A stretch of DNA of 64,000 nt, taken from a virus. This document shows, in pieces, positions 19,406-58,240 of the stretch (positions are counted from its first letter, which is position 1; each line of letters starts with the position of its first letter). The notes under the pieces were generated by a model. The model searched no databases, was not told where the DNA came from, and worked only from the letters and a program-made list of their open reading frames with translations. Where the stretch lies: IMG/VR virus record IMGVR_UViG_3300045988_106581; one strand, 5' to 3'. The position numbers and the translations under genes are program-made.

Positions 19406-19426
19406 GTATCCTGTGTAATGTAGCTA
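19406..19426 (-). promoter_or_regulatory. conserved 21-nt motif (TAGCTACATTACACAGGATAC on the minus strand), copy 1
   Basis: Its gene-proximal end lies 30 nt upstream of the RNA polymerase ATG (19375). One of 8 copies. Confidence 0.55.
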
Positions 19427-19452
19427 TAAAGAAAAAATATAAAATTAGGCTT

Positions 19453-19632
19453 TTACAGATAGCAGTTCTCGCCATCTTCCATAGTCTTGAGCCAAAGTCG
19501 TTCACGCTCCTGATAGAGCTCATCCAGCATATCATCAGCAGCCTCATACTCGCTGCGTGTCAGACTATTGCTATTCATGTTACGCACAAGCTGCTTGATC
19601 TCTGCATCAACATCCTCGTAAGTTCGCATCAT
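19453..19632 (-). CDS. hypothetical small acidic protein (59 aa)
   Basis: ATG at 19632 directly after the TGA of the upstream gene. Reads MMRTYEDVDAEIKQL...GENCYL, stop TAA. Below the ORF-track size cutoff. Confidence 0.5.
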   Translation of the reverse strand: MMRTYEDVDAEIKQLVRNMNSNSLTRSEYEAADDMLDELYQERERLWLKTMEDGENCYL

Positions 19633-20028
19633 TCATTCTTCAACTTCCATTGTGACCATGCTGATTTTACGATATGGACACAAGACTTGCATACACCGGT
19701 CAATATCATCAAATACGACATCTTTTCTTCGACCACGTTCTGTCTTTTCGTGTTCAAAATATTGACAGATATCGTATAGACGAATTTCAATCGCTTCTAC
19801 CACACCATTGAACTTGTGGTGATTTATGATTACGGAATAAATATAATCAGAGTAAGTAATCCTGTCTATTTTCAATGAATCGAAATCTTTACAGATGTCT
19901 TTGATAATATATTCCAAAGCTATTACACTAGATCTATCTGGTGCTACAATATCACAGTTGTGCTCAATTGCGTATTTGCAAGCATCATATGAACGTCCAT
20001 ACCCACGAGGTAAAAGAACTTTCTCCAT
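19633..20028 (-). CDS. hypothetical protein (131 aa)
   Basis: ORF track, with overlapping starts and stops in the operon. Confidence 0.55.
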   Translation of the reverse strand: MEKVLLPRGYGRSYDACKYAIEHNCDIVAPDRSSVIALEYIIKDICKDFDSLKIDRITYSDYIYSVIINHHKFNGVVEAIEIRLYDICQYFEHEKTERGRRKDVVFDDIDRCMQVLCPYRKISMVTMEVEE

Positions 20029-20348
20029 TACTTAACCTCCTCGTCCATAACAGCTCCACAGTTAGGACAAAACTTTGATTTATCAATATTTTTGCTAGAA
20101 TGACAAGCCGAGCATTCAACAAAGAAACTTTCTCCAAAATCTTCAAAATGCTCAATCCAATGAGCATGGATTACTCGATGAAACTCGCCGCCTGCGGCCA
20201 TCTCTTCTTGCATGTATTGAATTGCCCCATTCAAAGTCATCTTGCATACAGTTTTCTGAAAAGCAGAAACAAAACTGTTATCAATCAATAGCTTTGTATC
20301 TTCCAATGTCTGAATCAAGTGTGTCGCGTTAATAAACTTATCCATCAC
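20028..20348 (-). CDS. hypothetical protein with a C-terminal zinc ribbon (106 aa)
   Basis: ORF track. Contains ECSACH...CPNCG. Confidence 0.55.
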   Translation of the reverse strand: MMDKFINATHLIQTLEDTKLLIDNSFVSAFQKTVCKMTLNGAIQYMQEEMAAGGEFHRVIHAHWIEHFEDFGESFFVECSACHSSKNIDKSKFCPNCGAVMDEEVK

Positions 20349-20623
20349 TTGACCTCCTCAGCCACCCGGCGGATCGTCCCATCAATCTGTTCAAGCTCTG
20401 CCAGCAAAACATCCACGGTATCAGCATCACTTTCGGAAATATTCAAATCCTTGATCTTATGTAAAGCCCATTCAAGGTTCGGGTAATAACCGACTGTAAC
20501 CTCCTTTACGCCGGTGCCCATCTCACCAGTCTTTGGATTCTTGCCAGATGGCCGCTGCTCAACAATAACGAGATTCCGCTCATCGCAGTTCTTTATAATG
20601 TACTTGCCAAATTGAATTTTCAT
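20345..20623 (-). CDS. hypothetical protein (92 aa)
   Basis: An internal ATG with an AGAGGGAGAG SD in ORF 20345..20692. Confidence 0.5.
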   Translation of the reverse strand: MKIQFGKYIIKNCDERNLVIVEQRPSGKNPKTGEMGTGVKEVTVGYYPNLEWALHKIKDLNISESDADTVDVLLAELEQIDGTIRRVAEEVK

Positions 20624-20685
20624 TGTTCTCTCCCTCTTGTCTAAGTATATTTTAAATAAATAAGATTTCATAAGTGTAACTTTTA

Positions 20686-20916
20686 TTAACAATCTTTTCT
20701 CTTGAATCCTTGGAAATCAGCCATTCCCCAACTGCCATCAGGACAATGATGCGTTACATATCTATGAACGCCAATGCCGCAACCTTTTGGAAAGTATTTA
20801 TCTTTTGTCCATAATTCAAAAATTGCATCAGTTACCAAATTTTCATTTCCTGTACTTGAATCGACAAACAACTCTCCACAAAGACGACATTTATAAGTTG
20901 CATCAAACAAAGTCAT
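20686..20916 (-). CDS. hypothetical Cys-rich protein (76 aa)
   Basis: ORF track. Confidence 0.5.
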   Translation of the reverse strand: MTLFDATYKCRLCGELFVDSSTGNENLVTDAIFELWTKDKYFPKGCGIGVHRYVTHHCPDGSWGMADFQGFKRKDC

Positions 20917-20943
20917 ATTAGACCATCCTTAAAAATTATTTTT

Positions 20944-21216
20944 TTATTCTTTTGCACGGCTAATCTCAAATGCAGCCACATCGTTCATGAAATCATTGAT
21001 ATGTAGGTACTTGTCAGACTTCCGCACAGTCTTAGGCTTGAACTCTTGGCACTTGCATCGCACCTCATCACAAGTGGTGAAGCACGGAATTTCATACTGG
21101 CATTTTGTGCAGACATATTTCTTGTGGAACTCTGGTAAGCGTCCAACCGATTGGTAACTCTCATAGGTTACCTTTAAATCAATCCAATAGGGGTTATCAA
21201 AATTCATTATCGTCAA
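20944..21216 (-). CDS. hypothetical Cys-rich protein (90 aa)
   Basis: ORF track. Confidence 0.5.
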   Translation of the reverse strand: MTIMNFDNPYWIDLKVTYESYQSVGRLPEFHKKYVCTKCQYEIPCFTTCDEVRCKCQEFKPKTVRKSDKYLHINDFMNDVAAFEISRAKE

Positions 21217-22650: not shown

Positions 22651-22671
22651 GTATCCTGTGTAATGTAGCTA
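22651..22671 (-). promoter_or_regulatory. conserved 21-nt motif, copy 2 (leftward)
   Basis: GTATCCTGTGTAATGTAGCTA on the plus strand, 255 nt upstream of the 22395 start. Confidence 0.5.
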
Positions 22672-22709
22672 TCTACACTCATTATATCATCAAAATGCCA
22701 AAAGTTCAA

Positions 22710-22730
22710 TAGCTAAGTAACACAGGATAC
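22710..22730 (+). promoter_or_regulatory. conserved 21-nt motif, copy 3 (rightward)
   Basis: TAGCTAAGTAACACAGGATAC, divergent from copy 2 with 38 nt between them. Confidence 0.5.
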
Positions 22731-23205
22731 AAATATTTTAGCACCTATTATAATAAGGTATGTTTCTTGGAATGTTATCTATTCATGACTCGCAAGCTCG
22801 CTTCCGCTCTATGAGCGGGCGACCATTGCTAAGTAAGCTGACGGTCACTACGTTCTCTCTGCATATTTAGTTCAAGTCGCTATTACACATTATTCTCCAG
22901 AAAGGATATCCAAATGCTCTATATATTCTGTGTAAGCTGCCAGAGGCTACAATCATACTCCTTATAAGTCTTTAAAGTCTCTGAGAGTGCTACTCAGATG
23001 CTAGATCAGTCCATTTATGGCGATAGGGGAGTATAGATGAGTACAAATAGATACTTTACGCTCCGAAGAATGATCATTTTCGGTACATTTAGGGAACACA
23101 TCGGAAAAACCCGCATGAATCCTAGGTTTTTCGGCTTTTATTAGGTCAAAAAGGAACAAAATAGGTGGTAAAAGATACAAATAAAAAGAAAAACTAGCAA
23201 AAATA

Positions 23206-23221
23206 TAACGTAAATACGTTA
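23206..23221. promoter_or_regulatory. palindromic operator-like site TAACGT-N4-ACGTTA (copy 2 of 3)
   Basis: ATATAACGTaaatACGTTAAAT. Confidence 0.45.
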
Positions 23222-23974
23222 AATTCTAGCTAGTTACCGAATGGGCTACCGATTGAAAAATAGCGATCTTAAACCACTTTTTTGGTATTTTTGATGGAAA
23301 ATGAGAGATTTGTGAGTATATGTAGAAGAGGGTATAGGGATGTATTTTGGGGATATTTTTGTCAGGGGAAAGTGTACCCCGGGGAGGGGAGGAGGTAGAG
23401 AGTGTGATGGAGTGCCGGGATGGGATAAGATGGAGATTAGGAAGGTTTGATAGGAATTAGAAAGAAGGTAATTTTTGTGGAGATTGCTGTGTAAATTGTA
23501 TAGTAATATGGAATATAACAAATTGATAATTGGTGATTATGAATAAGAAAGATGTACTGGGGGGCTCGGCCTGCTGCCTAGAACGTCCAAAAAATGAAAA
23601 GTGCACCCCTACCTTGTCCAGTGCTGGAAATGCTCAAAATACGACACTCAACAGGGCAAGGAACGGCGGGAAGTTTTGGCGGTATCTAGTATCTGAAAAC
23701 AGGAGCAACAAAAGTTAAAAGTTTTAACTATTTTAATTCAATCTTACACATTGCCGGGTGTTTCTTTTGTTCGCTAATTGTTGACACGTTGCCGGGCGTT
23801 TCATATCTTATGTACTTTTCATATACTGCCTATATATTTTTTGATATACCATTCTTTTTCCCTTATAAGGTAATTATATATTATATTTTATCCTTATTTC
23901 AGCCAAAAACACCCACGATTCACTAAAATATAATTTTTAACGATATATCGCTATTTTATAAAAATCTATAATTC

Positions 23975-24011
23975 TTGCAACTTTTGTGCATGAATTGCAA
24001 CTTTTATACAT
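23975..24011. repeat. two direct repeats TTGCAACTTTT(G/A)T(G/A)CAT
   Basis: Read directly at 23975-23991 and 23995-24011. Confidence 0.6.
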
Positions 24012-24018
24012 AGACTTC

Positions 24019-24098
24019 CTAGCAAGGAACCGCTATAATTAAGCCACAATCTAGCAAGGAACCTAGCAAGGAACCTAGCAAGGAACCTAGCAAGGATT
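24019..24098. repeat. 12-bp iterons CTAGCAAGGAAC: one isolated copy plus four tandem copies (the last is degenerate)
   Basis: Copies at 24019-24030, 24051-24062, 24063-24074, 24075-24086 and 24087-24098 (the last ends ..GATT). Confidence 0.8.
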
Positions 24099-24919
24099 GC
24101 GCCGAACTTTGAAAACTGAATCAATCTTTTGTGGGAACGGCTCAAATGTTCCCGCTTAATCTAGGCAAGTGCAACAAGCCCATCGTGGTTATAAATCAGC
24201 AGTCTACCGGAACGGTAAAGCACCTAGAAAGTTTGATTCAGTCGGAAAAATTCGGCGGTGTAGGTAGCACCGATTTAAAAAAATCCAGCGCTTGCAAATG
24301 GGCGTCAATCGTGCATTCCGCACGCAATCAAACACACTTGCTATCCTACCGTATAGGTTAGAAAGATACGGAAAACAGGAAACACGGCTTGACCGTTTAA
24401 TCACTGTTTTGGTTTTGGCAATGCAAGCCGAAAAAACCTAAAAAAGCCGTTTGTCCGATTAAGGCATAGAGGGCAAACAATCCGCATTCACCGGATACTA
24501 GAACGCATTGTATGCACACAAAAACCGTTGTACAGAAAAGAGGGCAACGGCCATACATTGCAAGACTAGACAAGTAAGGGCAAGAAAGAAAGTACAGTTT
24601 GCGTATACTACAAACTAACTTTTGTGGGTTTATATCCACGGGCTACACGTTGCAAGGTTTATACTTTGCTTGTATGGTTTATGCCATACTCTATTGTAAC
24701 AAAGTCAAGTGTAGTTTGCAAGGGCTGTACAGCAAAGGTTTTTTATCTGTTTTCCAGCAAATTAAACAGACACAAAAGGTGTACATACTTTGCCCTTTTT
24801 AGGGCAAATCATAAGCTCATAAGCAAGGCGTTTTGTCTAGTTTGTGGGCTTTGATTTGCGCTAAAACGCAAAACCATACGACTATACACAATTCAGAACA
24901 CAAAGAAAAGAGGATTATT

Positions 24920-27003: not shown

Positions 27004-27132
27004 ATGATTCTTGACTGCTATATCATCCGTGAGTATTTGCCGAATGGCAAGCATACTGATCACGGCTATTATGAGCGTCAAGAAATGCTTGACGCTGCAT
27101 CCGATTTTATCAGTATGGCAGGGGAAAGTTAA
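27004..27132 (+). CDS. hypothetical small protein (42 aa)
   Basis: ATG after GAAAGGAAA within ORF 26932..27132. Confidence 0.4.
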   Translation: MILDCYIIREYLPNGKHTDHGYYERQEMLDAASDFISMAGES

Positions 27133-27145
27133 GAGGTTTAGAACT

Positions 27146-27490
27146 ATGTATGATTTGCGTGAACACAAGGAACTGATTAGCCGGTTGGTTTCCGAGGCCA
27201 ACCAGAACGACCCCAACTGGGAGTGGTCGGTCAGACGCCTCAGCAAGAACGTGGCCTGCATCTTCTGGGGTTACCTCGAATACTGCGATGAAGCGGAGTT
27301 ATCGTTTTCAATCAAGCTCGGCGAAGCCGATGGCAGATGCTGGGTTGAGGCTCGTAACGAGCACGGCTGGATACTGGAAAGTGAGATTGTAGCTGACAAG
27401 AACTTTCCATTCTTGAACTACCCGATTGACAATGCCGTTGAGAAGATGGTTCGCTGCATCGTCAACACCGCAAAATGCTGGATTGAATAA
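27146..27490 (+). CDS. hypothetical protein (114 aa)
   Basis: ATG after AAGAGG within ORF 27011..27490. Confidence 0.5.
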   Translation: MYDLREHKELISRLVSEANQNDPNWEWSVRRLSKNVACIFWGYLEYCDEAELSFSIKLGEADGRCWVEARNEHGWILESEIVADKNFPFLNYPIDNAVEKMVRCIVNTAKCWIE

Positions 27491-28892: not shown

Positions 28893-29049
28893 TCGTACAT
28901 TTACAAAATAGTCATGAATAAACAACGTATCAACGAACTAAAATGTGACGTTAATAAAATCTACATTTTAGTGCTTGACAAAACAAGTGGTATCCTGTAT
29001 CATGTAGCTAGAAATGGTAGTCCGTCAGAGGACTTTTATTTTTACTGTG

Positions 29050-29070
29050 TAGCTAAGTTACACAGGATAC
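29050..29070 (+). promoter_or_regulatory. conserved 21-nt motif, copy 4 (rightward)
   Basis: TAGCTAAGTTACACAGGATAC, 24 nt before the ATG at 29095. Confidence 0.55.
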
Positions 29071-29094: not shown

Positions 29095-29643
29095 ATGGCT
29101 ATGTATAAAACTAAGAAGGATGCAGCTTACGCATGGGTTCAGGAGTTCAATGCGATTCCTCAGAGCGTGATTGAAAAGCTCGCCAAGGTCGATTTGGAAG
29201 AGAATGGCGAAGGCATTACTGAAATCACGCCGCCGTCTTGTGGTGATCGTATCTATATCTTTAGCGGTGACCACTATGGTGAAAATGGTGAGATTCGGAG
29301 CTACAACGAAGATGATAACACTTACAGAATTTGTCTCGACGGCACTGGCGAGGAAGTTGATGTCAGAGAAGATGATTTTGAAGTCGAGCGTGACGACTTC
29401 TTTCCGATGTGGGGAACGATGTGGCAGTTTAGCGACGGTTGCGACAACTGGTGGCTTGAAAATCATCTTCAGGAAATGGCAGATTGTGGATTCCGTATCT
29501 ACGAGCAAGAGGATTTTGAGTACATTTTCGGCATTGATGGTTGTGGCTACGACTTTTATGAGGCTCATTGGATTCCGCTTTATGAAAAGCGTGGATTCCA
29601 TTGGGACGATGAGACTGTAAAGGAGATGGAAGAAAATGCGTAA
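29095..29643 (+). CDS. hypothetical acidic protein (182 aa)
   Basis: ORF track, with a GAGGAGAG SD. Confidence 0.55.
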   Translation: MAMYKTKKDAAYAWVQEFNAIPQSVIEKLAKVDLEENGEGITEITPPSCGDRIYIFSGDHYGENGEIRSYNEDDNTYRICLDGTGEEVDVREDDFEVERDDFFPMWGTMWQFSDGCDNWWLENHLQEMADCGFRIYEQEDFEYIFGIDGCGYDFYEAHWIPLYEKRGFHWDDETVKEMEENA

Positions 29644-29875
29644 GACGTTGCTTGAACGGCTTTTGGATGCCGGATATCCGAAAGCAGAAATTTATCATCA
29701 TATGTCTGACCTTTATGTTTTTGTAACACCGTTGACTACAAAAATTATTTCAGAATGGCGTGATGAAAATGGGTATACAATGAACTTGCATTGTGCAAAA
29801 TTCGTGGATCAGATTACGGGGAACATGATGTACGACTGTGCTTTTCAGTATTACGAGGTGGAAGAAAATGACTGA
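29636..29875 (+). CDS. hypothetical protein (79 aa)
   Basis: ORF track. Confidence 0.5.
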   Translation: MRKTLLERLLDAGYPKAEIYHHMSDLYVFVTPLTTKIISEWRDENGYTMNLHCAKFVDQITGNMMYDCAFQYYEVEEND

Positions 29876-30035
29876 TATGCAAGAAATGATGTGGGATGTT
29901 CTCTGTGAAATGTCAGGTGAAGATGTCGCAAGAGTATTTACCAACTATTATGGTAATCAGCTTTTGAGCAACGACTTCCATAAATTCCTTATTGACGAGG
30001 GATATATGGCTTCTGAAGAAGGGTGGGTTGGCTGA
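29868..30035 (+). CDS. hypothetical protein (55 aa)
   Basis: ATG within ORF 29838..30035. Confidence 0.45.
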   Translation: MTDMQEMMWDVLCEMSGEDVARVFTNYYGNQLLSNDFHKFLIDEGYMASEEGWVG

Positions 30036-30274
30036 TGATTATTGATTTGATTCTCGACCGTAAAGACGGAAGGCACTACAGCGCACACGATTTCTATATT
30101 GAAATCAGAAAATATGAACGTTTGGGTGTTGGCACTCACGGCGAGGATATTTCTATCGCAATGGATTACGGTGATAACCGTGATGTGCAGCGTGTTCTGT
30201 GTCAGTACATCCAGCGCAATGGATACCCGGCAGACATTGAGGACTACATAAGAAGTCAGATCTGGGTAGTGTGA
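30035..30274 (+). CDS. hypothetical protein (79 aa)
   Basis: TGATG overlap with the upstream gene. Confidence 0.5.
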   Translation: MIIDLILDRKDGRHYSAHDFYIEIRKYERLGVGTHGEDISIAMDYGDNRDVQRVLCQYIQRNGYPADIEDYIRSQIWVV

Positions 30275-30362
30275 GCAGCAGATGCTAGGTGATTAGCGGT
30301 ACTAGGGCAGATATAACCGCTACCAATGCAAAAGCATAAAAATATAAAAAGGAGCGACTGAT

Positions 30363-30578
30363 ATGGAAACAATGTACGACCGCATTAAGCGAATGGATAA
30401 GCATGAGCTTGCTGAGTTTATCTATGTTGTTTATCAAGCTGGTGTTAGAGATGGTGAACAAAATCTTTGTGATTCTCCTATGGGATTTTTTGGTTGTTGT
30501 TACTTCCTTAATGATAATGCAAAAATATGGATGCCGAATGATAAGCTCAAAGACCTTTATGATGCTTTTTATATCTAA
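30363..30578 (+). CDS. hypothetical protein (71 aa)
   Basis: AAAGGAGCGA SD. Confidence 0.5.
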   Translation: METMYDRIKRMDKHELAEFIYVVYQAGVRDGEQNLCDSPMGFFGCCYFLNDNAKIWMPNDKLKDLYDAFYI

Positions 30579-30604
30579 AATCATGCTTTTATGAGGTGAG
30601 AAAA

Positions 30605-30886
30605 ATGGAATCTACAATTACTTATAGTGTCCATGGTTGGGAAAACAAAAACAGCTGGGCCACATTTTCTAAGGATGGATATAAAACCAAAACTCGTGCG
30701 CTTCATAAGATGCAACGCATGATTGATGGCGGTTGTTTTGCAATGGTAAATCTCAGGGAAGAATCCGTTTATCTCAGAGACGAACACAATGACTTTTCTA
30801 CAAGCAGTGTGATTTATTCTTGGGACAACGAAAAAGGTTGGACTAAATGTGATGGAAAGGACGTGACAGAAGATGACCAACACTGA
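30605..30886 (+). CDS. hypothetical protein (93 aa)
   Basis: GAGGTGAG SD. Confidence 0.5.
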   Translation: MESTITYSVHGWENKNSWATFSKDGYKTKTRALHKMQRMIDGGCFAMVNLREESVYLRDEHNDFSTSSVIYSWDNEKGWTKCDGKDVTEDDQH

Positions 30887-31058
30887 AAAGAACATTATCC
30901 TTATGGCTCTTTCTTTCTATCGGCGTAAGCTGATGGATCAGAGTGTTTCATTCCTTAGAGCTGGCAATCACGAGGATGCAAAGCAGTCAACGATGGAAGC
31001 GGCCAACGTGAATGCATTGGTGATTAAGTTTACAAGAGAAAAGGAGCTTGCAATATGA
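30873..31058 (+). CDS. hypothetical protein (61 aa)
   Basis: ORF track. Confidence 0.45.
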   Translation: MTNTEKNIILMALSFYRRKLMDQSVSFLRAGNHEDAKQSTMEAANVNALVIKFTREKELAI

Positions 31059-31751: not shown

Positions 31752-31752
31752 A

Positions 31753-31974: not shown

Positions 31975-31976
31975 CT

Positions 31977-45724: not shown

Positions 45725-45733
45725 GATAAAGCT

Positions 45734-45913: not shown

Positions 45914-45937
45914 AAACTAATATTTAAGGAGGATTCT

Positions 45938-46690: not shown

Positions 46691-46714
46691 TAAAACCAAT
46701 ATTTTTGAAAGGAA

Positions 46715-47341
46715 GTGATTTTTATTAACTCTAATTTGTTAATAAATCGTGAGCAAAGTATTGCTATTGTGTGTATAATGTGTCTGCTGGCAGGGAATCT
46801 GGTATCGAAGATCAGCCCGGTGATTCAGAATCAGAACAATTCATACCTTTATAATAGTAGTCCTCCGGCAGTTAGTATTGTGCAACAAGAGGAAAAAGAG
46901 CCAGAAGTCATTGTAGAGACTGTTATTGAGACGCGGATTGTGAACTTCAGTCAGGAAAAGCGCGAACTCACTGATGATGAGCGTGCTCTTGCGGAGCAGA
47001 TTGTTGCTTGTGAAGCAGGTGCTGATAGCTTAGAGGGTCAGATGGCTGTGGCTCAATGTCTTTATGATTCCGCTGTACTTGACGGTCTAACCATTCAGCA
47101 GGTCTTTAAGAAGTATGGTTATAGTTCCTTATATAATAGGAAGGTGACGGCAGAGAACGAACTGGCTGTGTCTATGGTATTTGATTACGGCGCTAAAATT
47201 TCAAATAAGCCAATTCAGTGGTTTGTGACCCCGGCGGCAGCTCTAGGCAGTTGGCACGAGCGTGGAGCAACCTTTGCTGGACAATTTGGCGCACATAGGT
47301 TTTATTACAACAAAGAGTTGGTTGTTAATGATGCAGAGTGA
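46715..47341 (+). CDS. SleB-like cell wall hydrolase with an N-terminal TM segment
   Basis: LAEQIVACEAGADSLEGQMAVAQCLYDSA resembles the SleB/CwlJ hydrolase_2 domain. Confidence 0.5.
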   Translation: MIFINSNLLINREQSIAIVCIMCLLAGNLVSKISPVIQNQNNSYLYNSSPPAVSIVQQEEKEPEVIVETVIETRIVNFSQEKRELTDDERALAEQIVACEAGADSLEGQMAVAQCLYDSAVLDGLTIQQVFKKYGYSSLYNRKVTAENELAVSMVFDYGAKISNKPIQWFVTPAAALGSWHERGATFAGQFGAHRFYYNKELVVNDAE

Positions 47342-47464
47342 ATGATATCATCTAAAACTTCGATAAATCATACAACAAAAAGATGTGTAACATATTGACG
47401 AAAACAAAAAGATGTGTATAATGTATCTTGAAAGTTGTTTATGTGAGCGGAAGGCGGTATTTCG

Positions 47465-47791
47465 ATGAGTGAGAAAAAGGTTTTGGAAGTTATACAGGTC
47501 GAGAATTTTCTGAAGTACATAAGAAAAAAGCGAGTGTGGGTCTGTTTTATTTGTAATGGTGTGGATGTTCACATGATCTGTAAAAAGATGGGCGACATTG
47601 GCGTAGAGACGCATGGGATTGCAAAAGGTATTGGATTTTTTGGAAATGAAAGTCACATCGAATTGCGGCAAGAATGTCACGAAGTAAGGAGAGTAGAGCT
47701 TAGGCGTGACGATAAAGAGAAAGCGTATGAGATGATCTTCGATAATACCAATGTATTTGTATCGGAAAATCCAGAACTGTACGGGCACTAA
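47465..47791 (+). CDS. hypothetical protein (108 aa)
   Basis: ORF track. Lies directly upstream of the MazF-like gene but does not resemble MazE. Confidence 0.4.
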   Translation: MSEKKVLEVIQVENFLKYIRKKRVWVCFICNGVDVHMICKKMGDIGVETHGIAKGIGFFGNESHIELRQECHEVRRVELRRDDKEKAYEMIFDNTNVFVSENPELYGH

Positions 47792-47810
47792 AAATATTTT
47801 CAGAAACCTC

Positions 47811-47839
47811 TTGACTTCTGCAATGGTATCCTGTATAAT
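47811..47839 (+). promoter_or_regulatory. consensus sigma-A/sigma-70 promoter
   Basis: TTGACT (47811-47816), a 17-nt spacer, then TATAAT (47834-47839). It lies 44 nt before the MazF-like ATG. Confidence 0.65.
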
Positions 47840-47846
47840 GTAGCTA
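47826..47846 (-). promoter_or_regulatory. conserved 21-nt motif, copy 5 (variant, leftward orientation)
   Basis: GTATCCTGTaTAATGTAGCTA. The single G-to-A difference creates the TATAAT of the overlapping plus-strand promoter. Confidence 0.4.
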
Positions 47847-47882
47847 TGGAACGGAGCTACACTACTACAGAGGAGAAAGACT

Positions 47883-48308
47883 ATGGATAACAATATTGAC
47901 CCAAAGGTTGGAGAGGTTTGGTTGGTTGATTTATCCAATGCGACAGGTCATCAGCAGCGCGGCATTCGACCGTTCGTTGTGACAAGTAACAACAAGCGCA
48001 ACTTCTTCAGTCCAACAATCAAAGGAAATCCGTTGTCTTCAAGAATATACAAGCGCTCTCGCTCTCCGGTTCATGTCCTACTCTCAAAGGAGGACTGTGA
48101 TTTCCTAGAGGTTGATAGTATCGTTCTATGTGAAGAGACTGATACACTTAACAAAGGACAGTTCATCAAGAAACTTGGTGTCTTGTCGGAGCGTCAGATG
48201 AATATGATCGCAATGGCAAGATGCAAGGATGAACCGTTTTTGCTCGCAGCATTCCTGAGCGGCGTGCAATATACTATGGAATTTCAGAATTTTGCCGCAT
48301 TTGCTTGA
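47883..48308 (+). CDS. MazF/PemK (EndoA)-family endoribonuclease toxin
   Basis: KVGEVWLVDLSNATGHQQRGIRPFVVTSNNKRNFFSPT...VDSIVLCEETDTLNKGQF aligns along its length with B. subtilis EndoA/MazF as recalled from memory. Confidence 0.8.
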   Translation: MDNNIDPKVGEVWLVDLSNATGHQQRGIRPFVVTSNNKRNFFSPTIKGNPLSSRIYKRSRSPVHVLLSKEDCDFLEVDSIVLCEETDTLNKGQFIKKLGVLSERQMNMIAMARCKDEPFLLAAFLSGVQYTMEFQNFAAFA

Positions 48309-48361
48309 TTTTTTATAAGGTTTAATGGTACACTACATATAATAAGAAGGAGTGTGCCACT

Positions 48362-49288
48362 ATGCTTACTGAAGAAAAAATCAACGCTTTTGCTACAAGG
48401 TATTCTGACAGAAGTAGCAAATTTGTTGTTCAGACATTGCGTCATGTCATGGATTACGAATCAGAGTGTGGATGTGATTTGTTTAACTTCACAAAAAATG
48501 ATTTCATAAAGATGTTCATCAAATATAACTGGGTAAATTCGAGTCGTTCATATAAGAATGTAAAATCAATACTCACTGGTTATCTTAAAAGTGAAGATCG
48601 GATAAGTATGTACGACTTAACTGAACTTGATGAAAATGACGTAAGTGCAGACAATATGTATGATGACAAGTATTTCGCATCAACTGATGAGTTTGTTGGC
48701 CTTTTAAATAAATACAACGAGCCGTACCAAATTCGTATGAATGTAATTGCTGTGCTGTATTGGATTGGGCTTACATCCGAAGAAGTTTCCAATCTGACAA
48801 TTAACGATGTTGATTTTGAATTAAATTCTGTTCTTGATAAGACTGATATTGATGAAAATTTAATGGATATCATTAAGCGGTGCTATGAGATGAAACAATA
48901 TGAGGCCACCAACATGGGAGGTTGTAGAACGTTTTATGTCATAAATGGTGATTATATCCTTCGTAAAACAGAGGATAGAACTGGAATGGACAGTGATCCG
49001 AAGATGTCTACACATACAATCCACAATCAGATTGTGCGGTTAAATAATATTATCAAGAAAGGAAATAACAAAAAAGTTTTGTGTCAACAACATCTTGCAA
49101 GAAATTGCGAGTATGTGAAGGTCTACAATTATTATAAAAATCATCCTGAGTTTGACCTTGCTAATCTTAGCCTTGGAAAAAGTAAAGATACTCTTAAAAA
49201 CATTATTGGAAGAACGTTCAGTAAGGTGACTTATATTAGTTTCCGGCAAGGATATAAGGGCTGGGTCGAATACTTCCACAAAAATTAA
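48362..49288 (+). CDS. hypothetical protein, possibly a degenerate integrase-like fold (308 aa)
   Basis: ORF track. LYWIGLTSEEVSNLTINDVD resembles the Arg-I box but has T in place of R. No clear H-x-x-R or Tyr box. Confidence 0.4.
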   Translation: MLTEEKINAFATRYSDRSSKFVVQTLRHVMDYESECGCDLFNFTKNDFIKMFIKYNWVNSSRSYKNVKSILTGYLKSEDRISMYDLTELDENDVSADNMYDDKYFASTDEFVGLLNKYNEPYQIRMNVIAVLYWIGLTSEEVSNLTINDVDFELNSVLDKTDIDENLMDIIKRCYEMKQYEATNMGGCRTFYVINGDYILRKTEDRTGMDSDPKMSTHTIHNQIVRLNNIIKKGNNKKVLCQQHLARNCEYVKVYNYYKNHPEFDLANLSLGKSKDTLKNIIGRTFSKVTYISFRQGYKGWVEYFHKN

Positions 49289-49294
49289 AAACAG

Positions 49295-49317
49295 GGGGCT
49301 TTAGCCCCTTGATTTTA
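49295..49317 (+). terminator. rho-independent terminator
   Basis: GGGGC-TTTA-GCCCC followed by TTGATTTT. Confidence 0.7.
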
Positions 49318-49323
49318 ACATTA

Positions 49324-49344
49324 TAGCTACGTGACACAGGATAC
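49324..49344 (+). promoter_or_regulatory. conserved 21-nt motif, copy 6 (rightward)
   Basis: TAGCTACGTGACACAGGATAC, 21 nt before the ATG at 49366. Confidence 0.55.
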
Positions 49345-49365
49345 TTGTTAGAAAGGGAAATGTAA

Positions 49366-51579
49366 ATGAGAACGCTTTTGCTGTTCCGTGGAGCTCCAGG
49401 TTGTGGGAAGTCTACCTATATTAAAGAGCATAATCTTGAGCAGTACGTATTGAGTGCTGATACACTTCGCCTTATGTGCCAGAGCGCACAGGAAACACCT
49501 GCCGGGAAGCTGGAGATTTCTCCGCAGAATGATGATGTTGTATGGGAAATGCTTTTTAAACTGCTTGAGGTGCGTATGAGTCACGGCGAGTTTACCGTGA
49601 TTGATGCAACGAATTCCAAGACGGTCGAAATGAATCGTTATAAGAATCTTGCAAAACAGTATCGTTATCGGATGTATGTTATTGACATGACTGACCTTCC
49701 GATTGAGGAGTGCAAACGAAGAAACGCTCAGAGAGAATGGCTGAAGCGAGTTCCTGAAGCGGTCATTGATAAGATGTACGCTCGGTTTGTTACTCAAAAA
49801 GTTCCTTCTGGCGTGAAAGTTCTTCCTTCTACTACGGACGTGATGTCCGATTTGAACTACTATCCGAATGACTTCAACCAGTGGAAGAAGATTCACGTCA
49901 TCGGTGATGTTCATGGCTGTTATACTTGTTTAAGTGAATACCTTGGTGAAATGAGGGACGACGAACTTTATATCCTCGTTGGTGATTATCTCGATCGTGG
50001 CATCGAAAATGTTGAGGTGTTCAAGTTCTTGTGTGATGTTGTAAATAACAACCGCAAGAATGTGATCCTTTTGGAAGGAAATCACGAGCGTTGGCTGAAC
50101 AAGTGGGGGCATGATGAACCGGTTCAGAGTGAAGAGTTTGCAAACTACACTCGCCCGCAGCTCTTTAAAGCCGGTATTGACAAGAACACTGCTCGTAAGA
50201 TCTATTCCAGAGTCGGCCAATGTGCCTACTTTGAGTATGATGGGAAGAGGTATTTCGTGAGCCACGGTGGTTTGAGTTATCTGCCTTATTTCCTTCCTTT
50301 TGTATCTGCTGATCAGATGATTAAAGGTGTAGGTCGTTATCCTGATATGCTAACCGTGGCTGAGTCTTGGGAAAAATCGATGCCGGATAGCTACATTCAG
50401 ATCTTCGGTCATCGAAATGTGCAGGATGTTCCTATTGATATGGGGCATCGGTGCTACAACCTCGAAGGAAAAATCGAGTTTGGTGGATATCTCCGTTGCG
50501 TGGAACTTGAACACGGTCAGTCAATCAAATGTGTAGAAACTAAGAACAATGTGTTCCGAAAAGAAGAGCCAAAGACTGAAACTGCCGTTGAAATGAAAAC
50601 TGAGTTTGATAACGCAGAACTTGTTAGTAAGATGCGTCAAAGCAAATATGTGTTTGAGAAGCGATTCGGAGATATTTCTTCTTTTAACTTCTCTCGTGAA
50701 GCATTTTATAAGAAGCACTGGGATGAGGTTTCTACCAAAGCAAGGGGATTGTTCATTAACACAAAGACGAATAAAATCGTAGCTCGAAGCTATGATAAGT
50801 TTTTTGCTGTCGGTGAGCGGAACGAAACGAGAATTGGAAACCTTCAGAACACTTTGAAATTTCCGATGACTGCATATCTGAAAGAGAACGGATTTCTTGG
50901 TATCATCTCGTATGATGCAGAACAGGACGGTCTGTTTATTGCAAGTAAATCTACTCCTGAAGGGCCTTTTGCAGATATGTTCCGAAAGATTCTCATGGAT
51001 ACGACTTCTGATGAAGATCGTAAGAATCTGAAGGAAGTTGCAAAAGAGAATGGTTCTATCATTTTTGAGGTGATTGATCCTGTGAATGATGCTCATATCA
51101 TCGAATACAAGAAACCGCACATTGTTTTGCTGGATATTGTTGCGAATGATATGAGCATCAGTGTGATGGATTACGATGACCTGAAGCGTGTTGCTGAAAA
51201 GTGTCATTTGCAGATTAAGGAGAAGGTTAAGATCTTTGAGAGCTGGAGTGAATTCTATCCTTGGTATGAAGAAGTCATGAATGAGAATTATCTGCACCAT
51301 GGCATTGAGCATATTGAAGGCTTTGTCTTGAGAGATAACAACAATTTCATGTTTAAGCTGAAACTTCCTTATTATAAGCACTGGAAGTTCTTGCGTGGTG
51401 TTATGCAGAGCGTTCAGAAACGTGGCTATTATGAAAATACCGCAAAGTTGTTTACTGCTGAGGATAACCTGTTCTATGGTTGGATGCGTGAGCAACGAGA
51501 GAAAGATCAAGAGGCGTTTAGCAAGAAGGGTATCATTCAGCTGCGGAATGAGTTCTATGCAAGTCAGCAGAAGAGCTGA
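49366..51579 (+). CDS. trifunctional RNA-repair enzyme: polynucleotide kinase, metallophosphatase and RNA ligase (Pnkp-like)
   Basis: P-loop GAPGCGKST. Phosphoesterase motifs GDVHGC, GDYLDRG, GNHE and GHRN. Ligase motifs KENG (I), FEVI (III) and EGFVLRD...FKLK (V). The domain order matches Clostridium thermocellum Pnkp. Confidence 0.75.
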   Translation: MRTLLLFRGAPGCGKSTYIKEHNLEQYVLSADTLRLMCQSAQETPAGKLEISPQNDDVVWEMLFKLLEVRMSHGEFTVIDATNSKTVEMNRYKNLAKQYRYRMYVIDMTDLPIEECKRRNAQREWLKRVPEAVIDKMYARFVTQKVPSGVKVLPSTTDVMSDLNYYPNDFNQWKKIHVIGDVHGCYTCLSEYLGEMRDDELYILVGDYLDRGIENVEVFKFLCDVVNNNRKNVILLEGNHERWLNKWGHDEPVQSEEFANYTRPQLFKAGIDKNTARKIYSRVGQCAYFEYDGKRYFVSHGGLSYLPYFLPFVSADQMIKGVGRYPDMLTVAESWEKSMPDSYIQIFGHRNVQDVPIDMGHRCYNLEGKIEFGGYLRCVELEHGQSIKCVETKNNVFRKEEPKTETAVEMKTEFDNAELVSKMRQSKYVFEKRFGDISSFNFSREAFYKKHWDEVSTKARGLFINTKTNKIVARSYDKFFAVGERNETRIGNLQNTLKFPMTAYLKENGFLGIISYDAEQDGLFIASKSTPEGPFADMFRKILMDTTSDEDRKNLKEVAKENGSIIFEVIDPVNDAHIIEYKKPHIVLLDIVANDMSISVMDYDDLKRVAEKCHLQIKEKVKIFESWSEFYPWYEEVMNENYLHHGIEHIEGFVLRDNNNFMFKLKLPYYKHWKFLRGVMQSVQKRGYYENTAKLFTAEDNLFYGWMREQREKDQEAFSKKGIIQLRNEFYASQQKS

Positions 51580-52258: not shown

Positions 52259-53011
52259 GTGGCGTTAATTGATTTATATTCAAAAGAGGAACTAAAGACA
52301 ATAGTTGAAAATTCTTACTCAATAGCAGAGATTATTAGGAAGTTGGGATATTCAACGAATTCCGGAAATAATAATCAGACTATTAAGTCTCGTATAAAAG
52401 AATACGAAATTGACACGTCTCATTTCAGACATCAAAATTGCACAAAGAGATCACCGGAAAATATTTTCGTTGAGAACTCAACAGCAAAGCAATCAGTTCT
52501 GCGACGTTGGTATAAGAAAGGTAATTATTCTCAATATGTATGTTCTATTTGTGGTTTGCTTCCAGAATAGAATGATAAACCATTGACTTTGATTCTCGAC
52601 CATATCAACGGAAAAAATAAAGATGATAGGATTGAAAATCTTAGATGGGTCTGTCCCAATTGTAATCAACAATTAGACACAACTGGATACAAGAATCCAA
52701 ATCGAGCAGTATCTGCGAGAAGAGTTTATGAAAGACGTACTGTTGAAAAGAAAATCTGTCCTAGATGTGGCTCGTCAATGAGTTATAATGCCGACATGTG
52801 TAAATCATGTTGGGAAGTAGAGAAAAAATCAAAAAAGAAACCTTCACGTGACATTTTAAAGAGCTTAATTCATACAAAGGGCTTTATGGAAATTGGAGAT
52901 GAATATGGCGTAACAGATAGAGCTGTTGCAAAATGGTGCAGATCTGAAGGGTTGCCATATCGAATGACGGACATTAAGAAAATTCCTGATGAAGAGTGGG
53001 AGAAATTATAA
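52259..53011 (+). CDS. HNH homing-type endonuclease with an in-frame TAG (52568-52570). Either a pseudogene or read through
   Basis: ORFs 52259..52570 and 52583..53011 are in one frame. The junction reads ..CSICGLLPE-TAG-NDKPLTLILDHINGKNKDDRIENLRWVCPNCN, so the HNH core lies just after the TAG. Confidence 0.6.
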
Positions 53012-53916: not shown

Positions 53917-54786
53917 CTAGAACTTTTGTTTTAAATTATGTAAGGAGGGATTTTCTGCTAGACAAATCAGCGTCTGGTCTTGCAACGTAGAAATCGTTGC
54001 ACTCAATTCAGTTTGAACCAGAGCACCTTTACCGCCACCTTCACATCCAGAACGGATTTTTAAAGTGTAGGCTGCAGGTTCTGTGCATCGAGTCGAAGTC
54101 TCTCGATGGTCTGACTCCAATACTCGTCCAATTCCTTCTCTTCCAGACCTTCTTGTTCCTTCACTTTCTGCACCACCTGTGACAGAGTTCCTGGATTCCA
54201 CCATTCGATCATATCCAGCAACGCTTGCTTCAGGAGTTCGAGTAAAGGTTTTCCACGCCGGGATGCTCTCACAAGAATCCCCTGACATGCTCGTGCGCTC
54301 AAATAGAATTTCTGAGGCACGTTGTCCTCCAAAATCCATGACAAGCGCGATTCTCTGGCGGCGCTGGGCGACTCCCCAGTATTTAGCGTCGAACAATCTC
54401 CATGCAAGAGACCATCCATTACCGGAAATCGCTCCAGATTTTTCCCACTTTCCGTTCTTTCCTGAAGGTCGAGGAATTGAAACGTCTGGCTCGACAATGC
54501 GTGCAAATCTTTCCAACACACATCTGAAGTCTTCGCCTTTGCTTGAGCTGAAAGCTCCTCTGACATTTTCCCAGATTGCAAATTTTGGATATTCTCCATT
54601 GGTGGCCTCCCTCATTTCTGTAATCACACGAATCATTTCAAGGAACAATCCAGAGCGTTCACCAGCCAAACCTTCACGTTTACCGGCCTGACTCAAATCT
54701 TGGCAGGGACTGCCTCCTGTGATACAGGACACCGGCTCAATCTGCCATCCATGGAGTTGTGTGATATCTCCGTAATGCTTCAGTTT
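53917..54786 (-). CDS. cytosine-5 DNA methyltransferase fragment A (motifs IV-VIII plus the first half of the target-recognition region)
   Basis: ..HYGDIT..GGSPCQDLS (IV), FAIWENVRG (VI), QRRQRIALV (VIII) and GGGKGALVQ..SATISTLQDQTLI. There is no motif I. The frame opens right after a TGA at 54787-54789. The first in-frame canonical start is the GTG at 54732. It ends in TAG. Confidence 0.7.
   Translation of the reverse strand, partial: KLKHYGDITQLHGWQIEPVSCITGGSPCQDLSQAGKREGLAGERSGLFLEMIRVITEMREATNGEYPKFAIWENVRGAFSSSKGEDFRCVLERFARIVEPDVSIPRPSGKNGKWEKSGAISGNGWSLAWRLFDAKYWGVAQRRQRIALVMDFGGQRASEILFERTSMSGDSCESIPAWKTFTRTPEASVAGYDRMVESRNSVTGGAESEGTRRSGREGIGRVLESDHRETSTRCTEPAAYTLKIRSGCEGGGKGALVQTELSATISTLQDQTLICLAENPSLHNLKQKF
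53923..53933. repeat. left arm of the 11-bp inverted repeat (CTTTTGTTTTA)
   Basis: It is the exact reverse complement of 54884-54894 and lies within the last codons of fragment A. Confidence 0.7.
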
Positions 54787-54802
54787 TCATTCCCCCTTTT
54801 TA

Positions 54803-54823
54803 GTATCCTGTGTAATGTAGCTA
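54803..54823 (-). promoter_or_regulatory. conserved 21-nt motif, copy 7 (leftward, inside the candidate invertible segment)
   Basis: GTATCCTGTGTAATGTAGCTA on the plus strand. It lies 12 nt from an SD and ATG (54790) upstream of fragment A. Confidence 0.5.
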
Positions 54824-54883
54824 AAAGCCTTAAAATAAGCGAAAAATAACAGACGTATCAACGTCATATTATCCATTCGCCTA

Positions 54884-54894
54884 TAAAACAAAAG
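54884..54894. repeat. right arm of the 11-bp inverted repeat (TAAAACAAAAG)
   Basis: Lies 10 nt upstream of the GTG of fragment B, in the open part of the B reading frame. Confidence 0.7.
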
Positions 54895-56243: not shown

Positions 56244-56247
56244 CACG

Positions 56248-56454
56248 ATGAACAGCAAAATTCCTATCAATGTAACCATTGACCCCGGTTCTTTGAGTAT
56301 TCCAACAAGTCCTATCTTCCAGAAGGAAAAGAACACATATCTCTGTCCGTTTTGTGTGACGAAGCTGGAGAAGCTTGAACCGAAATGTCCAGAGTGTCAT
56401 CGCAAGATGGATTGGAGTAGGTTTATTGAAAAGAAGGAGGAGATGTTCAGTTGA
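56248..56454 (+). CDS. hypothetical zinc-ribbon protein (68 aa)
   Basis: GAGGAG SD. Contains CPFC...CPEC. Confidence 0.45.
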   Translation: MNSKIPINVTIDPGSLSIPTSPIFQKEKNTYLCPFCVTKLEKLEPKCPECHRKMDWSRFIEKKEEMFS

Positions 56455-56729
56455 ATATAGATTTCTTCCAACGGCGCAAGACACAGCTTGAAGATACTCT
56501 TCTTTTGAAAAATCAGGCAGTCGATATGCTTGATTATCTAAAGACGCATTGTATCAATAACGACCAGTATTGTACCATTCGAGATTACATTGAAGAAGCT
56601 GCGAAGATTCTGGAGAGTGACCTCGAATACGCAAACAATAAGCTACAATCCGCATTCAAACCTAAGTATGGCCGGAACAACAGATTGACTCGTGCTCAAT
56701 CTAAGATGTTCCGTGATAGAGAATATTAA
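56451..56729 (+). CDS. hypothetical protein (92 aa)
   Basis: ORF track (TTG start). Confidence 0.4.
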   Translation: MNIDFFQRRKTQLEDTLLLKNQAVDMLDYLKTHCINNDQYCTIRDYIEEAAKILESDLEYANNKLQSAFKPKYGRNNRLTRAQSKMFRDREY

Positions 56730-56746
56730 AAATGGGGTGATGCCGT

Positions 56747-56959
56747 ATGAACACATGTAAGAAAATATGTAACTGGTGTGGTCGTGAAATCAAGCCGATA
56801 GGTAGCGAGCAGGGAATCAGTTTTGAGCATCAATACTCTTATGGTAGCCAACTTGATGGTTCGCTTTTGAGTTTTGATTTATGTCCTGAGTGTTCAGAAC
56901 GGCTCCCAATAGTGCTCGGCGCAATGTTTGTACATAATCCCTTAAAGGACGATTTCTAA
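56747..56959 (+). CDS. hypothetical zinc-ribbon protein (70 aa)
   Basis: ORF track. Contains CNWCG...CPEC. Confidence 0.45.
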   Translation: MNTCKKICNWCGREIKPIGSEQGISFEHQYSYGSQLDGSLLSFDLCPECSERLPIVLGAMFVHNPLKDDF

Positions 56960-57105
56960 CGGCGAGTGCCGTATAAAATATAAGCCATCAATAAGCCAAA
57001 CGGAGGAGAATACATAAAATGAATAGTGCATGAATTGATTCAAGACAACAAAAAAGAAACATAAATGATTATCAATGAAACAAAATTACATAAAGGAGAC
57101 TTGAT

Positions 57106-58209
57106 ATGGCAGATAGAATTTTTAATCTTCCTCAGACCCGTGGTTCTTTTGAGATGGCTGGTAAAGTTACCGGCACCCAGCGTAGTAACTTCTATAATGA
57201 GAAGGAAACTAAGAGTGGTGCTATGCGTCGTGTTCTGAGCTTTGGTGTTCAGACCTCCAATGAGAATACCTTCTATGTTGATCTGGCTGGTATGCCTCGT
57301 GATAAGGTCTACTTCTTCCGCCGTGCCGATAAGGACAAGGGCATCGAGAAGGATAAGAAGGAAGTCGCTTGGAAGGATCGCATGACCTATGTTGCACCGG
57401 AAGGTTACGACATGATTGGCGTTAAAGTTGGTGTTACCAAGAAGACGAATGAGTCTGGTAAGGTCGTCAATGACAACAAGACTCTGACTGATTTCGATGC
57501 AGCCAAGGAGATCTCTGAGAACCTGCATGACGGTGATAACGTGTATGTCCGTGGTAACATCGAGTACAGCACTTACAACGGCAAGCACCAGATTCGCTTT
57601 GTTCCTACTCAGGTTTCTCTGAGTTCTAAGGAAATCGACTTCGATGCAGAGGGTTTTGAAGAGCTGGCTCTGTTTACCCAGACCATTGTTTACACTGGTT
57701 GCCGCAAGAGTGATGAGGGCGATGAAGTAGTTGTCGATGCAAAGATCGTGAATTACAACACTATTGAGGATGCAGAGTTCTTCATTGACTATAAGGCAAA
57801 CACTCAGAATAAGGTTCTGGCCGATTCTATTCGTAAGCGTTTGAAGCCTTATACTAGTTTCGAGTGTTTTGGTCCCATCGTTAATCAGCAGAAGGTTGAG
57901 GAAGTTGAGACTGAGAATATCTGGGGTGGTCCTAACAAGATGAAGCGTCAGAGCACTCCGGCAGTTCGTAAGCTGTATATCGAGGGTGTTAATCCTGATT
58001 CCTTTGATCCGAATCCCGGCGATAAGGATGCAGAGCCTACCTATACTGAGGACAATATCTCCGAGGCACGGGCAAAGATCGCTGCCAACGCTCAGGCTAA
58101 GAAGGACTTCGATGGCAAGGCAGCTGAGAACGATACTTCTTGGTGGGGTGGTTCTAACAAGTCCACTGCGACTCCTGCTGATGAGGAAGAGGATGACTGG
58201 GGAGTGTAA
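57106..58209 (+). CDS. putative ssDNA-binding protein (367 aa)
   Basis: AAAGGAGA SD. Acidic C-terminal tail ..PADEEEDDWGV. It is the first gene of the replication cluster. The OB fold was not verified. Confidence 0.45.
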   Translation: MADRIFNLPQTRGSFEMAGKVTGTQRSNFYNEKETKSGAMRRVLSFGVQTSNENTFYVDLAGMPRDKVYFFRRADKDKGIEKDKKEVAWKDRMTYVAPEGYDMIGVKVGVTKKTNESGKVVNDNKTLTDFDAAKEISENLHDGDNVYVRGNIEYSTYNGKHQIRFVPTQVSLSSKEIDFDAEGFEELALFTQTIVYTGCRKSDEGDEVVVDAKIVNYNTIEDAEFFIDYKANTQNKVLADSIRKRLKPYTSFECFGPIVNQQKVEEVETENIWGGPNKMKRQSTPAVRKLYIEGVNPDSFDPNPGDKDAEPTYTEDNISEARAKIAANAQAKKDFDGKAAENDTSWWGGSNKSTATPADEEEDDWGV

Positions 58210-58219
58210 TTTTTAGTCT

Positions 58220-58240
58220 TAGCTAAGTAACACAGGATAC
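58220..58240 (+). promoter_or_regulatory. conserved 21-nt motif, copy 8 (rightward)
   Basis: TAGCTAAGTAACACAGGATAC, 36 nt before the ATG at 58277. Confidence 0.55.

Follow-up and report, generated by a model that had tools for sequence, protein, structure and literature searches.

The viral record IMGVR_UViG_3300045988_106581 is a 64,000-nucleotide stretch of DNA, referred to in full as the window, which combines a gene for a single-chain RNA polymerase of the YonO type with nine copies of an asymmetric 21-bp motif. Its G+C content is ∼41%. Genes diverge from ∼22.5 kb, running leftward on the minus strand and rightward on the plus strand, and the sign of the GC skew flips at the same place. 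The polymerase gene lies on the leftward side. The rightward side holds ∼50 small genes, two tyrosine-recombinase-like genes, a MazF-like toxin, RlaP and a Pnkp-like RNA repair enzyme, as well as a tRNA cluster, a C5 methylase and a replication module.

Of the known relatives of cellular RNA polymerases the YonO-type enzymes are the smallest, and they find promoters without a sigma factor. The original prediction, made from the letters of the window, took the motif for a candidate promoter of the phage RNA polymerase, of T7 type. What stands of it is that the motif marks the starts of operons non-randomly, and with an orientation tied to them, in a phage with its own RNA polymerase. Judged from sequence, the motif is an element that controls transcription at the heads of the non-structural operons. 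The favoured reading, with a probability of roughly 0.45, is an operator or ‘stoperator’-like site for one DNA-binding factor, host-encoded or shared. A phage polymerase promoter is somewhat less probable and no longer the leading reading, given a copy of the motif in the host chromosome, the interlocking of its sites with host-type promoters, and relatives that keep the polymerase without the motif.

The motif and its copies

A search of the window with TAGCTAMRTDACACAGGATAC, allowing up to three mismatches, finds nine sites with 0–1 mismatch each, against 0.01 expected from dinucleotide-preserving shuffles. No second dispersed long repeat, which might have been the ‘real’ polymerase promoter, was found in the window; the motif is the sole repeat of this kind. 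The family alignment gives the consensus TAGCTA / YAYAAY (variable) / ACAGGATAC. The motif is bipartite and asymmetric: two blocks, TAGCTA and AYACAGGATAC, are fixed, and the 4 nt at the centre are free. Information content reaches background exactly at positions 1 and 21, and positions 7–10 are almost free; only these sharp edges and the free centre carry weight, because the alignment columns were selected on the motif itself.

The forward class of copies comprises those at 19406, 22651, 29050, 49324, 54803 and 58220, together with a ligase-proximal copy found in relatives. Copy 19406–19426 (minus strand) is placed 30 nt before the ATG of the polymerase gene. Copy 22651–22671 (minus) heads the leftward operon toward that gene, with a ribosome-binding site (RBS) and a small open reading frame (ORF; 43 amino acids (aa), GTG start) 21 nt on. 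Copy 29050–29070 (plus) stands 24 nt before the ATG at 29095 and heads the ∼50 tightly packed small genes (29095–47341). Copy 49324–49344 (plus) comes directly after a terminator-like hairpin (49293–49309), 36 nt past the end of one of the tyrosine-recombinase-like genes; the Pnkp-like kinase/phosphatase/RNA ligase gene starts with an ATG 21 nt further on. The replication module begins with an AAA_24 ATPase gene, and copy 58220–58240 (plus) lies 36 nt ahead of its ATG. Copy 54803–54823 (minus) sits behind a terminator-like hairpin (54865–54852) in an invertible cassette, 12 nt before a 17-codon ORF, and precedes the 5′ part of the C5 DNA methylase gene. The RBS of the forward copies begins 4–20 nt past the motif, so that, if the motif is a promoter, the geometry demands a transcription start inside it or at its edge.

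The reversed class comprises 28990–29010 (minus), 47826–47846 (minus) and one further copy in relatives, none of which has an ORF on its own strand. Copies 28990(−) and 29050(+) form a second divergent pair, with spacing equal to that of 22651(−) and 22710(+). Copy 22710–22730 (plus) abuts the −35 element of a promoter at 22681–22709 that runs in the opposite direction, and faces 2.1 kb without ORFs.

All eight copies listed in the original prediction are at the correct coordinates; the ninth, 28990–29010(−), had been overlooked. All nine are intergenic, as claimed, the ORF drawn across 29050 being merely 64 aa long. The distance of 12–36 nt to the start codon, claimed for five copies, applies to all six forward copies in the window, and the terminator before 49324 is present. 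Orientation matching the downstream gene, claimed for all copies, holds for the forward classes (8/8) and fails for the antisense copies 28990(−) and 47826(−) and for 22710(+); copy 54803(−) moreover lies in a segment that is inverted relative to close relatives.

That segment, 972 bp at 53923–54894, is 99% identical in reverse to relatives L297 and L298 and is bounded by 11-bp inverted repeats, CTTTTGTTTTA/TAAAACAAAAG. A circularly permuted C5 DNA methylase is intact in L297 (472 aa) and split in the window, its 5′ part lying on the inverted segment; the arrangement looks like an on/off inversion switch.

A near-palindrome, ACCTATTATAATAAGGT at 22743–22759, begins 13 nt downstream of copy 22710 and is kept in all relatives; a second regulator may use it as its operator. 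It lies within 22731–24832, 2.1 kb without credible ORFs at the GC-skew switch and gene-strand divergence, which contains five 12-bp iterons (CCTAGCAAGGAA, 24018–24099), AT-rich tracts (23870–23960) and several promoter-like repeats. This region is a candidate replication origin or partition region.

Host-type promoters around the copies

A sigma-70 pair of −35 and −10 hexamers 16–18 nt apart is not seen in the forward copies, whereas the opposite strand of the three reversed classes has one, with 11/12 matching positions. None of the forward copies has a conserved −35, and the central hexamers in the window (CATTAC, AGTAAC, AGTTAC, CGTGAC) are not −10-like. In the three independent reversed classes the opposite strand carries an invariant TTGAC(A/T) exactly 9 nt past the motif's 3′ end, which makes the motif centre the −10. 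The T at position 12 that such a −10 needs occurs, within the window, in the two reversed copies only. The claim that the motif bears no likeness to −35/−10 elements holds only in part: positions 7–12 are TATAAT-like in many relatives, and two window copies are −10 elements on the reverse strand.

The first of these sigmaA-type promoters, TTGACA-17-TATCAT at 28975–29003 (plus; 11/12), has a family-invariant TTGACA, and its −10 is the reverse complement of copy 28990. The second, TTGACT-17-TATAAT at 47811–47839 (plus; 11/12), takes its −10 in the same way from copy 47826 and drives the MazF-like gene at 47883. The motif is antisense without an ORF in 60/60 family contexts of the 28990(−) type and in 20/24 of the 47826(−) type.

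Promoters also lie just ahead of forward copies. An extended −10 promoter of sigmaA type, TTGAAC-17-TGaTATAAT at 22681–22709 (minus), has the family form TTGAAY-17-TGnTATAAT, with invariant hexamers and a variable spacer among 60 distinct relatives. Copy 22651 begins 9 nt past its −10, at about +3..+23. The promoter lies 3.3 kb upstream of the polymerase gene and leads to that gene, and it bears out the suggestion of an additional host-dependent start. No terminator-like hairpin is seen between this promoter and the gene, which resolves the bootstrapping of polymerase expression. In the form seen in relatives, the polymerase-proximal copy itself begins 9 nt past a moderate sigmaA-like TTGCTA-18-TATATT.

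A terminator-like hairpin with a T-run (29019–29044, plus) separates the promoter and reversed copy at 29.0 kb from forward copy 29050. The order here, and in a third control region described below, is host-type promoter with reversed copy, hairpin or terminator, forward copy or copies, RBS and gene. Overall, 10/13 site classes lie no more than about 130 bp from a consensus-like sigmaA promoter, where they coincide with the −10, occupy +3..+26 or abut the −35. Three promoter-linked classes cover the −10 and spacer, two lie at about +3..+23 (these include the promoters feeding the polymerase gene) and one abuts the −35; three further classes are found just behind a terminator that follows a host-type promoter.

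The phage family

The IMG/VR family set consists of more than 100 contigs of 120–141 kb whose polymerases are 83–99% identical; the window is about half of one ∼135-kb genome, as the span of these contigs shows. The family is abundant in human gut metagenomes; no description of it was found in the literature searched. Its host is, on sequence grounds, Faecalibacterium, because a partial polymerase gene occurs in an F. prausnitzii assembly and a 370-bp stretch is 97% identical to Faecalibacterium phage FP_Brigit. This stretch (27102–27471, 96.8% identity) matches a hypothetical gene of an otherwise unrelated phage and suggests recent exchange between phages of the same host. The first 50 kb of FP_Brigit contains no copy of the motif.

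The search across relatives that the original prediction called for yields ∼12 homologous sites in the family's contigs. Two pattern scans and the polymerase loci provide 484 distinct motif contexts, which fall into 11 recurrent classes, one of them with two tandem sites. Nine classes correspond to the window copies. The other two make up the third control region, which lies between the helicase and ligase genes ∼10 kb past the right end of the window, where a stretch of 150 bp around a single promoter and two hairpins contains three copies. As predicted, a copy precedes the polymerase gene, and it is fixed at 30 nt before the ATG in 80/80 relatives examined. Divergent pairs are found 3–4.5 kb and 9–10 kb upstream of the polymerase, and the 10 kb behind it are free of copies.

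All relatives with a polymerase 81–99% identical carry the motif, and so do host genomes without the polymerase. It is absent from phages whose polymerase is 59%, 49% or 38% identical, and no equivalent multi-copy motif was found in the loci of these 38–59% identity clades. Enterocloster phage PMBT24 likewise lacks the motif. A candidate equivalent, its own six-copy repeat TTCAATTCGTAAAGTAAAA, was rejected as it is not near the polymerase gene. This repeat occurs at 1082, 2160, 5038, 73410, 73599 and 87076 (L200+L201), and 4/6 copies are followed by conserved sequence with an inverted repeat. Transcript 5′ ends were also sought in metagenome contigs: all 55/55 matches are DNA assemblies, none ending at the motif.

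A copy in the host chromosome

A scan of prokaryotes, covering one genome per species and exact pattern matches, returned 29 stretches. Five are coding coincidences by descent (tsaE, mutL), 13 are singletons in unrelated taxa, and 11 represent one homologous non-coding Faecalibacterium locus, whose carriers include F. prausnitzii ATCC 27768, F. intestinale and F. tardum. Followed along the aroD strand, the locus consists of TTGACA-17-TATTAT, 12 nt, the reverse complement of the motif, 26 nt with the RBS, and the aroD ATG. In these phage-free Faecalibacterium genomes the motif thereby occupies about +6..+26 relative to the aroD promoter (for example, L365:234-254). A reading of the locus as ‘promoter then motif’ proved wrong, with a spacer of 23 nt and a TTGACA inside aroD. 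In its forward direction the host motif aims at two consensus promoters, after which the contigs end; rRNA sequence is not on them, and the presumed target is an rrn operon.

Some phage copies are identical to the host site (21/21). When the locus is re-sampled without motif selection, via AroD homologs of 83–86% identity, the blocks are intact apart from one G3A change. The 4-nt centre differs in almost every species, while the flanking ∼150 nt are otherwise near-invariant. No similarity to phage was found at the host loci. A chance match over 17 positions, in the host genus, in non-coding DNA and at an operator-like place, is very unlikely (estimated at well below 1e-3), and the link between phage and host motifs is treated as real for this reason.

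The polymerase and its partner gene

The polymerase gene (16592–19375, minus) encodes a 927-aa single-chain, two-barrel enzyme of the YonO/RdRP type, with the catalytic DFDAD at aa 546–550. Its sole Pfam match is RdRP PF05183 (E = 4.6e-14). The nearest proteins by tblastn are those of Clostridium phage c-st and Enterocloster phages (38%), followed by YonO of SPbeta-like phages (25%). BLASTP against YonO of an SPbeta-like phage gives E = 1e-22, with DFDAD aligned to DNDGD of YonO and the triad intact. The T7-type label is wrong: the Pfam and tblastn results rule out a polymerase of the T7-like (Pol I-like single-subunit) family. The copy of the PDB that was searched contains no YonO-like chain.

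Directly behind the polymerase, on the same strand, relatives of 49–59% identity carry homologs of YonK, YonJ, YonG, terminase and YonD, in an order also seen in PMBT24. From this gene order and a YonK-family ORF in the window, the block left of the polymerase is read as an SPbeta-like late region. Strong terminator-like hairpins (10–17 bp stems with T-runs) occur within it, at 15741–15778, 12805–12828 and 11510–11537 (minus), so the late block needs either a terminator-insensitive polymerase or more promoters. In some genomes of the 59%-identity clade the polymerase is split into ORFs of 646 aa and 278 aa, ∼340 nt apart (L295:3268-6384, L296:2828-5946), which could reflect an intron, an intein-less split or a frameshift.

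A gene for a 251-aa protein (15859–16614, minus) overlaps the end of the polymerase gene. It is kept beside the polymerase in relatives of 38–59% identity, with its own homologs diverging down to 31% identity. The AlphaFold model (pLDDT 88.5) has helical and winged-helix-like parts, and an invariant CxxC...CxxC indicates a zinc ribbon. Foldseek returns weak matches only (E ≥ 0.2), to winged-helix DNA-binding domains. The modelled protein is a candidate motif-binding factor, or a specificity or transcription factor of the polymerase.

PMBT24 encodes a sigma factor beside its YonO-type polymerase. The window ORFs have no Pfam match to a sigma factor, and no homolog of the PMBT24 sigma was found in 3.5 Mb of family loci.

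Other features of the window

An RNA-damage and repair cluster at 45938–51579 brings together an RlaP-like nucleotidyltransferase, the MazF/PemK-like toxin with its own consensus promoter, and the 737-aa Pnkp-like kinase/phosphatase/RNA ligase. One of 13 phage tRNAs (12023–12097, minus) has the anticodon CUA, that of an amber suppressor, and is called ‘Pyl’ by ARAGORN. Two ORF pairs (52259–53011 and 978–2003) would join across a single TAG; TAG recoding as the cause of ORF-poor stretches was rejected, since ORF lengths are not increased. The only Rfam families found at the motif sites are tRNAs, and a PDB sequence search with the first early protein (389 aa) gave no match.

Interpretation of the motif

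In the operator reading, one sequence-specific factor would bind the bipartite motif and gate the host sigmaA RNA polymerase over the non-structural half of the phage genome. At promoter-linked sites the bound factor would occlude or block the host polymerase. Isolated forward copies would act as an oriented roadblock before the first gene, on the model of mycobacteriophage L5 (cluster A), for which Brown and colleagues reportedly described repressor operators and ‘stoperators’ in 1997. The phage would in this way tie its early and middle programme, including expression of the YonO-type polymerase, to that factor. The site persists in hosts that lack the phage, so the factor is probably encoded by the host, or is a phage factor that shares the specificity of a host factor.

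The arrangement of the copies fits this reading in two respects: sites overlap or closely follow promoters of the host polymerase, and further intergenic sites keep one orientation relative to transcription. Promoter-linked and host copies are accounted for naturally, and isolated forward copies by analogy with L5 alone. Also counting for an operator is that phages with a polymerase of 59%, 49% or 38% identity lack the motif. If the site is an operator shared with host aroD/rrn, a large gut phage has put all of its early programme, polymerase gene included, under a host regulator, which would bear on decisions between lysis and dormancy in the gut.

Several observations weigh against an operator. 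A search for a cognate DNA-binding protein with Pfam finds no repressor, helix-turn-helix or sigma gene among the 133 window ORFs. The exact-match scan found only one non-coding host site per genome, and this site runs against aroD transcription, unlike the roadblock-type phage copies, which are forward. All eight forward site classes are co-oriented with the downstream gene, 12–36 nt before its start codon. Three of them stand behind a hairpin and T-run without recognisable sigmaA elements, so expression of the genes behind such terminators would need read-through. An asymmetric site of 17 positions is, finally, more typical of promoters of single-polypeptide RNA polymerases than of repressors.

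The second reading, somewhat the less probable of the two, is a promoter of the YonO-type polymerase, possibly acting with the co-translated 251-aa winged-helix/zinc-ribbon protein. It accounts best for the forward copies, for the length and invariance of the motif and for the lack of any sigma factor. The host polymerase would make the enzyme from the 22.7-kb sigmaA promoter; the enzyme would then start at or near the 3′ end of forward copies, boost its own gene and the SPbeta-like late block and take over other operons, while reversed copies would shut host promoters. The window encodes an intact enzyme of this type and neither it nor the 3.5 Mb of family loci shows a sigma homolog. The motif, the only dispersed long repeat, is long, near-invariant and asymmetric with an AT-rich centre. 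Its forward copies stand close before start codons, after terminators and without sigmaA elements, with a centre that often lacks equivalents of −11A and −7T. The copy fixed 30 nt before the polymerase ATG in 80 relatives, with none in the 10 kb behind, fits the single long YonO-dependent late operon of SPbeta (PMC5467207), and Thermus phage P23-45 sets a precedent for conserved motifs in the service of single-chain two-barrel polymerases (PMC10770324).

Against a polymerase promoter, the same 21-mer is constrained in the aroD leader of phage-free host genomes, and 10/13 site classes interlock with host-type promoters in places that suit an operator. Some copies would fire into hairpins and terminators or antisense into genes, and three are packed around one promoter. 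Clades of 38–59% identity keep the polymerase without the motif or any substitute that was found. The host copy might be met by supposing that the motif is the first YonO-family promoter consensus and that a phage promoter mimics a constrained host sequence, an improbable variant. As part of it, the host copy would let the phage enzyme transcribe rrn and silence aroD once the host polymerase is sidelined, with reversed copies as a polymerase switch. Were the motif a promoter, it would offer a defined template for biochemistry and structure work, with ∼12 near-identical candidate sites from a family that infects Faecalibacterium, a keystone gut commensal.

Readings other than the operator and the polymerase promoter are unlikely even when taken together. 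The foremost of them, a −35-independent promoter for the host core polymerase with a phage sigma or co-activator encoded outside the window, is very improbable. The sigma factor of PMBT24, the TATAAT-like positions 7–12 in many relatives and the window's coverage of only about half the genome speak for it. Its −10-like centre, however, is the least conserved part and in most window copies lacks −11A/−7T equivalents, a −35/−10 pair would need blocks further apart than these two, no sigma domain occurs in the window ORFs and no PMBT24-sigma homolog in the family loci, and the host copy goes unexplained.

CsrA has the selection consensus RUACARGGAUGU, which the 3′ block of the motif resembles. 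A pseudo-Shine-Dalgarno or CsrA-like site (ACAGGAUAC), or a processing site upstream of the RBS, would suit forward copies in the presumptive 5′ untranslated region, 12–36 nt before start codons, but such an RNA leader element is highly improbable: reversed and host copies would be transcribed as the complement or not at all, geometry to the −35 is set at the DNA level, the TAGCTA block and fixed 4-nt gap are unexplained, and no window ORF matches the CsrA family. Equally slight is the prospect of a site-specific recombination core with the free centre as crossover, for example for integration at host aroD–rrn by a tyrosine recombinase; the 21/21 identity of some phage copies with the host site, the two arms around a variable centre, the two tyrosine-recombinase-like genes and phage-carrying contigs of 211–283 kb, which suggest integration somewhere, are set against twelve copies per genome in a conserved synteny unsuited to this role, arms that are not inverted repeats of each other, no examined locus joining phage DNA to host flanks, and a sole observed inversion that uses other, 11-bp repeats.

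Comparison with known systems

The literature searched contains no promoter consensus for enzymes of the YonO family. In SPbeta one YonO-dependent start has been mapped, downstream of yonO, and the promoter sequence was left undefined (Forrest et al. 2017, PMC5467207). The window resembles SPbeta in its homologous polymerase (E = 1e-22, DxDxD triad), followed by late genes of the YonK/YonJ/YonG/terminase type. Unlike in the window, the motif was not found in the yonO–yonK region of SPbeta-like phages, where the best match has 4–5 mismatches. For comparison with PyonO of SPbeta only the forward primer could be placed, and it has no likeness to the motif. In the SPbeta-like phage Goe12, the yonN–yonK gap (L199:7650-9339), 1.7 kb of non-coding DNA in the region of the YonO-dependent start, contains two ∼29-nt repeats (CAGTTGaCAgGCAACATAAAAACTTG) ∼140 nt apart, which the published PyonO reverse primer resembles.

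Among other phage polymerases of this kind, the virion polymerase of crAss-like phi14:2 has no common upstream motif (bioRxiv 10.1101/2020.03.07.982082). Thermus phage P23-45 gp96 and gp64 have conserved motifs, at least 15 nt long, upstream of mapped starts (PMC10770324). The window and P23-45 share conserved motifs accompanied by non-canonical, sigma-less phage polymerases; the P23-45 promoters were established by start mapping and chromatin immunoprecipitation sequencing (ChIP-seq), whereas the motif here was recognised in sequence, and the sequences and polymerase families are unrelated.

The motif also recalls T7 class II/III promoters, being ∼20 bp long, near-invariant, tied in orientation, placed shortly before an RBS and sometimes behind a terminator. 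It differs from them in that the polymerase is not T7/Pol I-like, that host promoters are overlapped by the motif and that the host genome has a copy of its own.

The motif is bipartite and 21 bp long, against 13 bp for the L5 sites, and no cognate phage repressor was found among the window ORFs; the host chromosome keeps an identical site, and host-type promoters take their −10 from reversed copies, again unlike L5. What the two systems have in common is the overall layout: many asymmetric copies, some over an early promoter and others in short intergenic gaps, held in one orientation relative to transcription.

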